A stretch of DNA of 64,000 bases, taken from contig OZ231126.1 in NCBI GenBank assembly GCA_965153355.1, positions 2,542,001 through 2,606,000 on the forward strand, in the 5' to 3' direction. How positions within the stretch are numbered: the stretch's first letter is position 1; each line of letters starts with the position of its first letter. This document shows positions 10,395 to 19,300 of this stretch, in pieces. The position numbers and the translations under genes were made by a program. The notes under the pieces were generated by a model. It was not told where the DNA came from and ran no database searches. It worked only from the letters and a program-made list of their open reading frames with translations. This DNA is from Flaccisagitta enflata (Eukaryota).

Positions 10395-13300
10395 ATGGCT
10401 TTCAGTAGATTTTTTGCATTTTCTATTTTTGTTATTTCTGGTATACAGTCTATGGACAAAACGAGTGAAGTAGATTTTGCTCGTCACCGGTAACACGCTA
10501 AGTCATGGTTTGTTATTGAATGTAGGTTTAAAATTATCTCGTACAACTTTACTGAAGGCCGAAATCTTCTAACTTAAGTACGATTACTAAATACGGGCCA
10601 TCTGAAAAAAAAAAGTTTCGAAGAAGTTAAGATGCCCGATAAGAACCTTATAAAAGAATATGTGCGAGTCTGCGGCGAAAACAAGAGTCGTGGTCTGAAG
10701 AAGGGTGAACAGCCCGGGGCCAGAAAAGTGTTCTGCGGTATTAAGACTATATCCAATCCGATATTCGATGATTTTTATATGAACTAATTTTGATATGTAG
10801 TTATCACGTGACTTAGAAGCAGTAAGATGGTTGAATGTTGAATGGCGTTCCAGGATATTCATATGGTGAACTATGATATCAGTCGGTTGTGTGCACGAGT
10901 TTCACAATGCTTGTCAAAGTTGATGTTTACGACATGATCACAGGTAGGACTTCCTACTATAGATTGCGATACCCGACAGGCGGAGGAAGAAGATAGCGAT
11001 AGCACCGGGACCGATTCTGACGATGATGCAAATGACAATTCCGGGGACTCGGAAGACGACTCAACTCAGAAAGCAGACTTGAAGCCGATGTCCGCGAGGA
11101 AAGGTCGTCCACCGGTGATTTCGTAGGAGATGCAAGCTGCTTTTGCCGCGGATCATCCACAATCTCGCAACAGAAATCATGATAAGGATGACGCAGATTT
11201 CTTCCCAAATGACTTCGCCGAAAGTGATATGATCTAGCTGTGGCCGACGGGAAAGGCAACGGCCTTGTAAACAAAAACAAAACACTTACGACAACAAAAA
11301 ACAAAAAAACAACAACAACAACAACAACAACAACAACAACAACAACAACAACAACAACAACAACAACAACAACAACAATAACAACAACAACAACGACAAC
11401 AACAACTTTCTACTTGTTAATAGGAATCTCTTTTTATCTGTTGATGTTTCTTACATTTTAGACTCGAATTGGCAACCTGCTTTGATAAATTAAAAGCTTT
11501 CTCATTTTAAAACCCCGAAAAAACGCGGGATTTCTTAAACGTTGTGGAGGGGTGGGCAGGGGCATACACATAGTCCTACACAGCGCCGTAAATAAGCGTT
11601 TTTACTCTTTTTAGCACCATCATAACAGGCTCTGTCCGCTTGTCTGTCTGTCTATCTTTCTGCCTGTCTTTGTTGGTTGGTCGGTTAGTCACGCTCAAGT
11701 CAAAAAAAGCAAAAATTGTTTGAAATCAATTGAAAACTGGTCTCTCACGTAATTCTTGTTGTGGTAAGATTCGAGATTCGCCGGTCCAACTATAAGAAAT
11801 ATGTCCACACTCTGTCACCATATTTTACTCTTATACATAGGGATTTTTATGACTCTTGAATGATGAAGCGCTATTTCTATGGCGCATGAACTGAAAAAAA
11901 GTATGAAAACACCCATAGATAGATTTTCCTCTATGAATCTGTGAAATACTGATGACACAAAGTGTGGACATATTTCTCATAGTTGGCCCGGTGAATCTCG
12001 AATCATGCCTTGATCATCATAGTATTCATCTTCATAGCGATAAGTCTGACAGACCTGGGGTCAGGGGTAGGTCGCATAAAGCTAGGGATAGGGGGTCATA
12101 GACCTATGAATTGGTCTGAGAATGAACAACGCCAGGCGCACCATCTTGGCCCGTGTATCTGGCTCTGTTATCTTGTGCGTCATGTGCCCAAGGATGTAGG
12201 GTGAAGTGGGCTAAAATGGGTCACTTTTTTGATTATTTTCTATATTTCTATTAAAATGTTGTATTTTATGATTGATTATGGACGATGTGTGTCACACTTA
12301 AGTTTTTTTAAAGCTTCTTTATTCTGTGACGTCACTGCTCCTGCCCAAATGGTCTAGTGACAAATATGGCCCCTACCCACCCGCACGCAACTGGGGTAGC
12401 CGTGTATCCGGCCTTGTTTAAACACAAGTAGTTGACCCATGGGTCACCTACAACGTTGGCCATCAATTTATTCCAAGTGAGGAGTTACAATACATTAGTG
12501 AAAAAACAAGTGACCTAGAATATCAATTTAGCTAAAAAAGTATCTTATGGCAAAAAATATTAGGTTATATGATAAGTTTTTTAGAAATTAACGGTATAGC
12601 ATCAAATCATCATAGTAATAACATAAAATCTTTTAAAAAAATGGAACAAGATGTTCAGAGCGAGAATGAGCTGTATCTTGCTTACTCTGACCCATGAGTT
12701 GGATAACAAGCATATCTCAGCATTTTGATGAAAATTTCTTGATTTTAGCATCGTGACCCATGTTACTAAAACCATGTTATTGAAAAATGCTCTTAGGGGG
12801 GGTATCCGGAGATGTGTGGAAAACTATTACTGCCCACCTTTAACCAGCTATCCATTAATCCATAAATGCTTTCCTCCTCCATTTGATCTCCATGGAAATA
12901 AGAAGTTGGTTTTATGCCTAGCGACGCACAATTTTTAGCAATTTACTATTTAATTTCACTACGTTAGCATCCAAATATTACCCCCCTCTGGCCGGGCCTG
13001 AATGAAGTCAATCACATGATTGCAACAATATGCTAATTAGGGGCAAAAAAACTGAAGAAAAGCAAAAAAGAACAAGGCCAAATATATGGCTACCTAAGTC
13101 GCGTGCGGGTGGGCAGGGGCCAAATTTAAAAAAGATGGTGACCGACCGACCAACCCACTGACCAACCAACCGACCAACCAACCAACCCACGGACGGATGG
13201 ACAAAGCAGGTTGTGGAGTCGCGTGTACGCGACTTAAAGCCCTTTGCTGACCTAGTGTGATATCCTCATAGAATAATGTTTTGCATATTGGCATACCCGA

Positions 13301-16300: not shown

Positions 16301-19300
16301 ATGTAAGCCCAAGGGCCAAGCCAATTCAGTCAAGATTCAGGCTCATGTGCAATTGGCTTACTGGTTAGTGGGTACAAACAAATTACCATGAAAGCGAAGT
16401 TAAGTTGCTCATGGGTCTTGACTTTCGTGGTCACGTTACAAGATGGCGAAATAGACTTCAAAATAGTTACGAAGAGTGGATGAAAGCTTTTTGCATATGT
16501 TTCATAACTGGTTACAGCACAAAACTCGGTGATGCTATCAATGAAGGAGCATTTTTGCGCTGATTTTGTCACCGAATCTTTGATGTCCTTGTAATATTTG
16601 TCCCGGAAATCACGGAGTAATGTACAAATGTTTTCGAGCTCTTGTTGTTTTTGTTGTTGTTGTTGTTGTTGTTGTTGTTGTTGCTGTTGTTGTTGTTTTT
16701 GTTGTTGTTGTTGTTGTTGTTGTTTTTCTTGTTCCAATGAATTACATTGATTTGAGGCGAACATGTCTACAGGGGGAAATGACGACGAAAATTGTTGCTT
16801 ACGGCTCATCGTCGACATTTGCCTCAATTTGGGTCACAGTTCTTTTCAATGATTAACATCTCGTTAATTTAACTTTCAGATGGCCCGTATTTAGTAATCG
16901 TTCTTGCGTTAGAAGATCTCGGCCTTCAGTAAAGTTGTACGAGATAATTTTAAACCTACATTCAATAACAAACCATGACTAAGCGTGTTATCGGTGACGA
17001 GCGAAATCTACTTCACTCGTTTTGTCTATAGACTGTATATTTTGTTTCGTTGACATTGGGACTGATATTGCACTCGCATATCAACATTACTTGGATGATC
17101 ATTGTGCTCATATGGGACACAATAATGGAACCATGATTTTCCCAGCAATTGAATGGAATCTATGGAAATCCCGACGTTGGTAATGATGGGGTATGGCTGG
17201 TAATAATTGGTAATGGGGTACAATTGTACAATCATCTGTGATCTTTTGTTTGAAAGACTTTTTAAGCGGTTTTTTAAATTAGGGTCAGGGGTGGGTTTAG
17301 GGTTAGGGTTAGGGATAGTTTAAGGGTAAGGGTTAGGGACAGGGTTAGCTTTAGGGCTAAGGGTTGGCTGGGTTTTATGTATTACGGCCGAAAGGTATTC
17401 GAATTAAAGCTTCGCTCTGGCGGAGGATTCGGAAAGAAAAACAAAATCGTGCAGAGAATCGTTCATTTTGTCCGGTTATGGTTGGTGATGGTAGGTAATG
17501 ATTGGTAATGGTTGTGCTTTTCAACTGCAAAATGGTCGTTAGCTTAAATCAGTTGTAGCCAAGCAAATATCCAAATTGAACAAATTTGTGGATTTATTTC
17601 AGGAGCCTCATTATAACCATGCAAGACCGATATCTGCTCCCTCTCTCAGTGTATAAGCTGACATAAGCTGACATTAGTTGACACTTTTCTCTGTCTGTCT
17701 GTCTCTGTCTGTCTGTCTGTCTGTCTGTCTCTCTCTCTCTCTCTCTCTCTCTCACTAGCCGGTATCGCCATCTGGCATTCTTTGGCTTAACTTCATTTTG
17801 GATCTGTCTAGGCGGATTTCTTCAAGTCATCGTCCTTCTGCGTTATTTCAGGTGCAAAAAAAAAAAGGCGTGTTTCTAGTGGCGACCAAAAACGCGTTTT
17901 TTCCCATTTGAACGCGTTTTCAGCGTGAACACATACTCAAGAATTTCAATTGTCCCACAAGCAAGTGTAGCAAAGGGGAGCGCTGTAGTGCAAGTGAGCG
18001 GAATGAGCGGTGCGAGCGAACGAACATAGCGAGCGACCGTGTGGCGCGTTAAAAATGCGATTGTCTCTGACTAGAAACGCCCCAGATTCTTCGAAAATGA
18101 TACACACTCGACTGATTCGCGAAGTGAAATCCTGGGCTTAAATCCATCCTTAAATGGATATCCCTTGATTTAGAGCTTACATATAAGAATTAGTCATAGC
18201 GACAAGCAACTTAAAAGCTAAAATCGATAGATTTCAACTCAAGGATTTTCATTCGAAAGAAATACTACTTCGCGATTTACAATTAAACAAAGTAAGTGTG
18301 GATAGCATCAATAATCGTGCGCTAACATTGCTGTGAATGCGGGCCAACTAAGTGAGCTGCCAGTTCAGATTTGGACTTCTACTAGTTCAAGTACCTTCAT
18401 AATGCATGATTCATAAATGACAACAATGATCTCTGTGAATGCAAGTCAGATTAGTGAGCCGCCATGTGACTGTGTCGGCTAAAATGAATGAGCAAAACAA
18501 ACGGAAAGAAAGTAACATGAGCGAAACACGTTTTTCAAAAACAAAACAAAACAAAACAAAACAAAACAAAACAAAACAAAACAAAACAAAACAAAACAAA
18601 ACAAAACAAAACAATACAGTGAATGAGCTAGAAGCGCCTCTGAGCGGTATGTGCCCTGCCTGAAGATGCTTTCGCAAATCCGCGAACAGAAAGAACGAAT
18701 TACCGTATTTCCTGTAATTAGCGCCCTGGGCGCTTTTGAAATGGAAATAAAACATTCACTCACGTATAGTTGATATCACATGAAACCTACTCTTTTTGAC
18801 AAATATTTTGTAATTCAGTGCAATAAAACGCTAATATAGAGAATGATTTTTGCATTGCATTTCATTCTTGTGTGTATTTGCCAATGATAAAATTTGATTA
18901 TGATAAATTTGACAATATTCTTTTCAAAAATATGGTTACATAATGAACTCTCTTTTTCTTGAAAAGTGGGGGGCGCTAATTAGAGGGGGGGCGATAAATA
19001 TTGGAAACATGGTATTCCCTTAATCTGTCACACTGATGTCACACTGTTTCATAGAAAGATTTTTAAAAATTTGAGTTAGAGTATGCATGGAACTATATAA
19101 CCTTCCAAAACATGCTAGAAATGACATCTGTTAATCCGTGTCAATTAATCAATCAATCAATCAATCAAACAATCAATCAATCAATCAATCAATGACTCGT
19201 GAATGCCACCTGAAGCATAAAACACGCCTGCTTGGATCCTCTCCCGACTCCTCTTCGCGTGTTGTTGTTGGTTTGTGCGCCGTTTCTCATGGCGCCGGTT

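Follow-up and report, generated by a model that had tools for sequence, protein, structure and literature searches.

The window, i.e. the whole stretch of 64,000 nt that was analysed, contains an inverted-repeat transposon inserted into the first coding exon of a putative XK-related gene. The insertion splits this exon into two parts (1a and 1b), and the element is flanked by a duplication of TATA. The features at the insertion are as follows.

10395 to 10440, + strand: exon 1a, starting at ATG and running for 15 codons into the first base of codon 16 (MAFSRFFAFSIFVIS followed by G..)
10442 to 10445, no strand: left copy of the TATA target-site duplication
10446 to 17035, no strand: inverted-repeat DNA element, 6,590 bp, non-autonomous, without recognisable transposase
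10446 to 10607, + strand: left terminal inverted repeat, 162 nt, starting with CAGTC
12291 to 12419, no strand: copy of a high-copy short repeat nested inside the element (window matches, 72-94% identity)
13064 to 13249, 13540 to 14042, 15337 to 15661 and 15699 to 16115: other repeats nested in the element (window matches, 72-94% identity)
16874 to 17035, - strand: right terminal inverted repeat, 162 nt
17036 to 17039, no strand: right copy of the TATA target-site duplication
17037 to 17179, + strand: exon 1b (IFCFVDIGTDIALAYQHY...), ending with two codon bases and the donor TTG/GTAATG

The two arms differed at 8 of 162 positions, and with the palindromic TATA counted they extended over 10442-10607 and 16874-17039 (166 nt, 95% identity). 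A previous reading of the sequence only had described the same pair of repeats as splitting an open reading frame and as about 5% diverged, and both descriptions agree with the present alignment and with the TATA found on either side. The 25-nt terminus of the element occurred exactly twice in the 64,000-nt window against 0 expected, and its CAGT-type end presumably resembles the ends of Tc1/mariner elements. None of the 77 internal open reading frames of at least 30 aa matched a transposase family, the DD(E/D) transposase of Tc1/mariner included; the element thus holds nothing recognisable to be broken, and the 'broken internal ORFs' reported earlier were not recovered. At least five interior segments resembled other repeats of the window, which bears out the several nested insertions noted before. 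The nested repeat at 12291-12419 had very high depth in DNA run X1.

The ATG at 10395 is the first in-frame ATG (A at -3, G at +4), and the insertion point lies between codons 16 and 17. Read without splicing, the frame continued for 32 codons from this ATG and ended at TAA (10491-10493) inside the left inverted repeat. After deletion of the element together with 4 nt, the frame from exon 1a into exon 1b was open, as had been claimed for removal of the element plus one TATA; inverted ends and a target duplication therefore lie within a coding sequence whose reading frame is restored by their removal. A 2-bp TA duplication of the Tc1/mariner type was also considered, since TA adjoins both ends, and was rejected, deletion of the element with 2 nt giving a stop at codon 50. 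The 4-bp TATA duplication is preferred because only removal of the element with 4 nt reopened the frame.

Downstream of the element, the following exons were chained or considered.

19216 to 19374, + strand: candidate exon 2, 159 nt, a hydrophobic stretch followed by RND, phase kept, from phase chaining
20441 to 20655, + strand: exon 3, 215 nt, containing an ESVPQL motif and ending at the donor AAG/GTGTGA, in phase with exons 1b and 2
31708 to 33002, + strand: possible C-terminal exon block, several candidate open GT-AG chains of 177-216 codons

Exon 1b matched the Pfam XK-related family (PF09815) over profile positions 9-45 of 337 with an E value of 0.009 and 15.5 bits, below the cut-off of 24.8, and its third match in the ESM Atlas was a cluster in which 14% of the members are XK-related (score, 0.87). 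Exon 3 gave no match in Pfam and PDB searches; in the ESM Atlas, the XK-related set accounted for 16 of its 30 matches, with 208 of 256 features in common and a score of 0.92, and these look-alikes are a lead that makes it the one piece beyond exon 1b with outside support. Candidate exon 2, for which the family search gave no match, has a weak acceptor (-2.0), and direct joining of exon 1b to exon 3 was also in frame. Exons 1b, 2 and 3 together form 517 nt, open and in phase. For the block at 31.7-33.0 kb, enumeration of exon chains gave 738 and 33,586 open chains, so that an open chain is possible there and the real one is not picked out; family searches of 31708-33002 gave no support. At E ≤ 0.1, none of 180 + strand open reading frames (at least 27 aa, 17.18-38.4 kb) matched the Pfam XK-related family, the control aside, and the '~490 downstream Xkr codons' of the previous reading were not reproduced, two further exons (19216-19374 and 20441-20655) having been chained instead. 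Pfam searches of X-read-through frames (all three frames of 17.18-36.9 kb and two of 36.9-50.4 kb) gave low-complexity noise only, long X-laden frames reducing the sensitivity of such searches. No homologue was retrieved by word-index searches with exon 1b and the open reading frame at 20430-20678, a phmmer search of 1.84 billion representatives with exon 1b returned 0 matches, and when metagenome contigs were scanned with a back-translated pattern, 0 of 293 pattern matches were confirmed. Four exon pieces searched by sequence against the PDB had no XK-related match; a ribosomal protein (E 2.1) and a small toxin-fold peptide (E 0.4) were set aside as chance matches. The XK-related (scramblase-like) label is accordingly a lead, taken from one sub-threshold Pfam match (exon 1b) and the Atlas look-alikes.

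Exon 1a comprises only 15 codons, XK-related identity stayed below threshold, no downstream open reading frame reached Pfam and protein searches retrieved no homologue; these points would suit a reading in which the exon with ATG 10395 is not the true first exon, or in which the locus represents a fragment of a gene or an artefact of assembly, so that no rescue is needed. We consider this very unlikely, and the same slight probability attaches to its corollary that the element would be located in an intron, in a 5' region or in dead DNA. Against this reading, the well-placed ATG meets the XK-like frame only on removal of the element and exactly 4 nt, and that frame has no alternative start: the stops in the other two frames end at 10377 and 10408, and the frame within the right arm is open and lacks ATG. 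Two separate exons on the same strand and in phase also give XK-related leads.

A pair of proposed splice sites is available near the ends of the element.

10441 to 10446, + strand: proposed 5' splice site GTATAC, formed of host G, TATA and the first base of the element
17011 to 17031, + strand: proposed 3' splice site, a pyrimidine-rich tract ending in TATAG, within the right inverted repeat

With GT at 10441-10442 as donor and AG at 17030-17031 as acceptor, the junction 10440/17032 was in frame through exons 2 and 3, replaced Gly16 with Asp-Cys and added a net 3 nt, so that the sites, frame and substitution proposed by the sequence-only reading hold. The net addition would be 3 nt in any reading frame, provided that G precedes TATA, and, since the element ends TATAG/ACTG followed by TATA, each insertion behind a G would be a frame-neutral addition of 3 nt. 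An established spliceosomal intron with donor G/GTATAC and acceptor TATAG/ in the right arm would account for these sites and this arithmetic, and the proposed acceptor (3.3) equalled the best acceptors of the locus; the layout is identical to that of Symbiodinium introners (PMC9860276), and multi-kb autonomous elements forming functional introns have been reported (PMC12130899). Against it, GTATAC scored -1.7 bits on a generic donor matrix compared with -0.1 to +3.8 for the other candidate donors of the locus, and is the weakest among them, as had been cautioned. Moreover, 10440/17032 is one of eight in-frame GT..AG pairs near the ends of the element, and one of the other seven has a better-scoring donor (CGA/GTGAAG at 10465). 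The acceptor and its pyrimidine tract are also buried in a predicted near-perfect stem of 162 bp, which the donor adjoins. We hold an established spliceosomal intron to be quite unlikely.

The same stem would favour another route. Pairing of the arms in RNA was predicted at -273.2 kcal/mol, compared with -49 ± 6 kcal/mol when the right arm was shuffled, and the element, an exonic DNA transposon with inverted terminal repeats that are predicted to base-pair, agrees with the description of substrates of SOS splicing (PMC12779559). It is possible, if doubtful, that the paired 162-nt arms direct excision and religation independently of the spliceosome (AKAP17A, CAAP1 and RTCB in SOS splicing). Such excision might, at the same guarded level of belief, use a number of non-GU-AG cut sites within the arms or close to them; small indels would be left behind, and a usable protein would arise only from the in-frame share. 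The insertion is in the first coding exon, as in the published case (PMC12779559), and structure-directed excision would account for insertions of this sort being tolerated no less well than a spliceosomal intron would. On the other side, the published cases reported there are Tc1, Tc3, Tc4 and HSMAR2, among which an arm spacing of 6.3 kb was not met, and rescue failed in conserved protein regions (PMC12779559), and the present site lies 5 residues before the conserved D..TD motif.

The sole polyA RNA run of the same species (X23) was read to about 6% (12.2 M reads). In this sample neither exon 1a (bin 10296-10886) nor exon 3 (bin 20343-20933) had any depth, depth in the exon 1b bin (16797-17387) was 0 and 0.06 in the two orientations, and no joints were found, the 10440/17032 junction included. 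The lack of RNA over the locus speaks against structure-directed excision, and the lack of both a junction read and expression speaks against a spliceosomal intron; since the sample is about 6% of one library, the missing reads are weak evidence and cannot refute splicing of a weakly expressed gene. In DNA run X1, contigs of the left end and adjoining interior had a depth of 283-961, compared with about 70-130 for single-copy pieces, and differed from the window copy in letters at 10500, 10589, 10648 and 10671. In a contig of metatranscriptome X11 (record 17), the start of the element at 10445 was joined to another flanking sequence. These depths, letter differences and this contig indicate that similar copies (95% or more) exist elsewhere. 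The 25-mer of the element end had 0 matches in metagenome contigs. Marine metagenome and metatranscriptome runs contained 4-20% of sampled words; in two of them (X10 and X11) matches were limited to repeats and were uninformative on expression or habitat.

The likeliest single reading, to which we give a little less than an even chance, is an unrescued, disrupted insertion allele of the putative XK-related gene, the insertion being young and possibly polymorphic. A non-autonomous 6,590-bp inverted-repeat transposon with a 4-bp TATA duplication has entered the first coding exon, and this copy is disrupted at the DNA level; its unspliced message would encode a 32-residue peptide ending in the left inverted repeat. 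The insertion would be fairly young and would derive from a multi-copy family whose members are still similar, and the downstream exons would look intact because little time has elapsed, not because of long service as an intron. The sequence shows the insertion with its ends, its duplication and the frame arithmetic; that the insertion is young and that no effective rescue takes place is inferred. In favour of this reading are the structure and frame, the lack of a transposase match, the similar copies elsewhere and the missing RNA reads in X23. Age is the simpler reading of the nested repeats, at least five in number, and of the 5% mismatch between the arms, which counts against a young insertion, and if the insertion is old, exons 1b, 2 and 3, being open and in phase, would speak for selection having continued. 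Cut-and-paste elements carry their inverted ends along unchanged, and these ends need not be identical at insertion, so that 8 mismatches in 162 nt provide no clock; the nested repeats may have travelled with the element, which weakens the argument from age. Of the earlier statement that the element looks old, the mismatches and nested repeats stand, and the dating drawn from them is weak; with the ~490 intact codons not reproduced, an old element in an intact gene is a weak argument for a role as intron. Against an unrescued allele there further stand the in-frame GT..AG pair at the ends with its net 3 nt, the report that a near-perfect RNA stem, such as the 162-bp one predicted here, triggers transposon excision from animal mRNAs (PMC12779559), and the small share (about 6%) of one library sampled in X23.

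Intron birth in progress, in which a multi-kb, cargo-laden element has been tolerated long enough to gather nested insertions through its removal from RNA by the spliceosome or SOS splicing, seems unlikely. The DNA permits the proposed in-frame splice, which in RNA is hypothetical. If the element is removed from RNA, the locus would be a wild, non-model example of the tolerance of exonic transposons by animals and would illustrate a way in which insertions of this kind could become introns, linking introners and SOS splicing; if not, it would be a commonplace knock-out allele, caused by insertion, in one gene of a multigene family. The two routes can be separated at this locus, a precise 10440/17032 junction pointing to the spliceosome and scattered non-GU-AG junctions near the arms to SOS splicing.

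In-frame removal from RNA is a candidate, so far unproven, for a kind of event that is known already. Excision of exonic transposons in C. elegans was reportedly the subject of an earlier paper by Rushforth & Anderson in 1996. Exonic Tc1, Tc3 and Tc4 are reported to be excised from 90-100% of host mRNAs by SOS splicing, for which inverted-repeat pairing is necessary and sufficient and internal sequence dispensable, and which also works in human cells with HSMAR2/Tc1 reporters (Zhao et al., Nature 2025, PMC12779559). The present element resembles Tc1::rsd-3 of that report as a cut-and-paste element with inverted ends in a first coding exon, with arms able to pair and with removal near the arms capable of yielding an in-frame message with a small indel (PMC12779559); it differs in its size of 6.6 kb, its nested repeats and its lack of a transposase, and in having inserted naturally in a marine animal that is not a model species, where it is seen in DNA.

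Introns derived from transposons have been described before, some of them several kb long. In Symbiodinium, introners were reported with a 4-bp duplication, inverted ends, an element-borne 3' site and a 5' site co-opted from the duplication (2022, PMC9860276). The TATA duplication, the inverted ends, the AG in the element end, the GT formed of a host base and the duplication and the predicted small in-frame addition are shared with these; in contrast, introner families consist of many near-identical intron-forming copies with median lengths of 30-654 nt (PMC9860276), whereas here a single 6.6-kb copy is seen in DNA. Gozashti et al. (2025, PMC12130899) report that multi-kb elements, inverted-repeat DNA transposons among them, generate functional introns, a sea urchin and a tunicate being among the hosts, and those cases were validated by mapped RNA-seq and comparison of orthologues, whereas the present case is known from DNA. 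In the pelagic tunicate Fritillaria borealis, numerous MITE-derived introns with non-canonical ends have been reviewed (PMC11282704); here a canonical GT..AG pair is available and a single case is known, and the likeness lies in inverted-repeat elements within genes of a planktonic marine animal, whose paired ends draw the intron's ends close to each other (PMC11282704).

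The animal DNA of the window contains many microsatellites and short repeats, and the 6,590-bp unit at 10446-17035 is a bona fide inverted-repeat transposon: two 162-nt arms (10446-10607 and 16874-17035) lie in opposite orientation with 8 mismatches, each is bordered by TATA, and the sequences outside TATA are unrelated to each other. The 25-nt terminus, starting CAGTC, occurred twice in the window against an expectation of none. The transposon in a split exon described in the sequence-only reading was a solid observation. At least five interior segments (12291-12419, 13064-13249, 13540-14042, 15337-15661 and 15699-16115) resembled repeats found elsewhere in the window. 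The 77 internal ORFs of ≥30 aa gave no match to a transposase family, and the element was therefore regarded as non-autonomous. Its termini resemble the Tc1 type; assignment to Tc1/mariner was rejected because the duplication is 4 bp long and no transposase was recognised. A solo end at 3418-3587, ~70% identical to the 162-nt arm, belongs to a diverged, related member of this transposon family, with its partner arm absent from the window.

Exon 1a, the part of the first exon upstream of the element, opens with ATG at 10395 and comprises 15 codons and one base up to TATA; unspliced, this frame runs for 32 codons and then reaches TAA (10491-10493). Exon 1b, the downstream part, starts right behind the right TATA copy with IFCFVDIGTDIALAYQHY... 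and reaches a GTAATG donor at 17180; it matched Pfam XK-related over profile positions 9-45 with E 0.009 and 15.5 bits, below the 24.8 cut-off. Deletion of the element plus exactly four bases joined exons 1a and 1b in frame. The two-base (TA, classical Tc1/mariner) duplication model was rejected after yielding a stop at codon 50 upon deletion, and stops that end at 10377 and 10408 close the remaining two frames, so that a 4-bp duplication is the sole model giving a working ancestral exon. A (CAA)n tract of ~380 nt (9990-10370) ends 25 nt upstream of the exon 1a ATG, and the repeat recurs within the element, where 11311-11407 has the same sense and 16637-16733 reads (TTG)n; jointly these tracts form additional long inverted repeats spanning the insertion.

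The element had been proposed to be spliced out in frame from exon 1 of an XK-related (Xkr) gene. Both splice dinucleotides are present (GT, 10441-10442; AG, 17030-17031), and the 10440-to-17032 joint keeps the frame with Gly16 replaced by Asp-Cys; sites and frame were thus confirmed, and no such joint was found in the ~6% of the polyA RNA run sampled. By sequence, a G before TATA gives a net gain of 3 nt in any reading frame. Eight in-frame GT..AG pairs lie near the element ends, the proposed pair among them. The donor GTATAC scored -1.7 bits versus -0.1 to +3.8 for other candidate donors at the locus (generic donor matrix), and the acceptor at 17030-17031 scored 3.3, among the best of the locus. 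A precise spliceosomal intron, one of three readings kept as live, is considered improbable. Pairing of the arms in RNA was predicted at -273.2 kcal/mol versus -49 ± 6 with shuffled arms, and the acceptor with its pyrimidine tract lies within the predicted stem, which the donor adjoins. Arm pairing that directs excision of the element from the RNA would fit this prediction; this reading is judged somewhat unlikely.

A search identified raw reads of the same organism, namely a polyA RNA run and two DNA runs, and marine metagenomes and metatranscriptomes containing small shares of the sampled words; reads were then placed on 10296-28000. From 12.2 M RNA reads (~6% of the run), 299 were placed, 298 of them matching only in part; most fell in bins rich in repeats (15024-15614, 19161-20342 and 20934-22115), with depth ≤0.14 elsewhere. 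A family of short repeats in very high copy number, whose summed word depth reaches millions in a DNA run, occupies these bins and many other places and makes up the main RNA-covered part of the stretch; its RNA reads were ascribed to transcription elsewhere, because all continue into unrelated sequence. In this ~6% of the run, depth was 0 in the bins of exon 1a (10296-10886) and exon 3 (20343-20933) and, by orientation, 0 and 0.06 in that of exon 1b (16797-17387), and no joints were detected over 10296-28000. Missing junction and missing expression, half of what the sequence-only reading had named as refuting its splice, are weak evidence against splicing, since expression at a few transcripts per million would, on a rough estimate, leave about one read on these exons at the depth sampled.

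Single-copy depth in the DNA run was ~70-130, and contigs over the left arm and adjoining interior reached 283-961, with letters differing from this copy; one metatranscriptome contig joined the element start to another flank. Similar copies are therefore present elsewhere, and by depth they have at least the first few hundred interior bases in common. Arms of cut-and-paste elements, unlike LTRs, are not made identical on insertion, so the 5% arm mismatch is no measure of age; the nested repeats may have arrived together with the element, and intact exons are expected under both a young knock-out allele and an old spliced allele. The earlier argument from an old element in an intact gene is weak on these grounds. 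We tentatively favour an unrescued insertion allele, probably young, at a little short of an even chance.

The ~490 intact downstream Xkr codons described earlier were not reproduced: XK-related matches were absent from whole frames read through with X (three frames, 17.18-36.9 kb; two frames, 36.9-50.4 kb) and from single ORFs between 17.18 and 38.4 kb (0/180), the exon 1b control scoring every time. A motif search located ESVPQL in the ORF 20430-20678, for which 16 of 30 ESM Atlas look-alikes were XK-related (score 0.92, 208/256 features in common). The exon assigned here is as follows.

20441-20655, plus strand: exon 3, acceptor at 20439-20440, donor AAG/GTGTGA at 20656, in phase with exon 1b

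Exon 1b can be joined to exon 3 directly or via a 159-nt candidate exon (19216-19374, weak acceptor), and candidate GT-AG chains that stay open for 177-216 codons are possible at 31.7-33.0 kb. The gene continues past exon 1b, with ~170 codons open and in phase in the exons chained here; a wrong first exon, gene fragment or artefact is rated the least probable reading.

Directly behind the exon 3 donor lies a MITE of ~515 bp (20667-21179), which has inverted ends and duplicates 11 bp, GTGTGATATTT; given the position of the MITE, this duplication keeps the first 11 intron bases intact. A second copy, 79% alike, lies within the large element (13540-14042). Just beyond the MITE, 37 nt (21193-21229) are 81% identical to the exon 3 end and donor (20628-20664) and may be a decayed duplicate of that end. 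The first intron carries a run of degenerate TTAGGG-like hexamers directly behind exon 1b (17279-17380). A 2-kb tandem array of ~105-nt units (22147-24081) is open in several frames, part of it at single-copy-like DNA depth. On the minus strand, a 391-codon open frame with a GSGKT (P-loop-like) motif (38375-39550), accompanied by more minus-strand ORFs to ~40.15 kb, is probably a separate gene bounding the Xkr locus downstream.

Removal of Tc1 by splicing was reportedly described in 1996. Introners are described as having 4-bp duplications, inverted ends with the 3' site and a 5' site co-opted from the duplication, with family medians of 30-654 nt and over-representation in aquatic organisms (PMC9860276). 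Functional introns from autonomous and other large elements were reported in 2025 for hosts including animals (PMC12130899), and MITE-derived introns of a pelagic tunicate are treated in a review article (PMC11282704). SOS splicing is reported to remove exonic Tc1, Tc3 and Tc4 from 90-100% of host mRNAs independently of the spliceosome, triggered by inverted-repeat pairing, with cuts at several, mostly non-GU-AG sites that leave small indels, and to rescue gene function only with in-frame products in tolerant regions (PMC12779559). SOS splicing is the most relevant known system for this element, whose removal from RNA, if real, would be a further case of an already known phenomenon and a natural test case separating the two removal routes.
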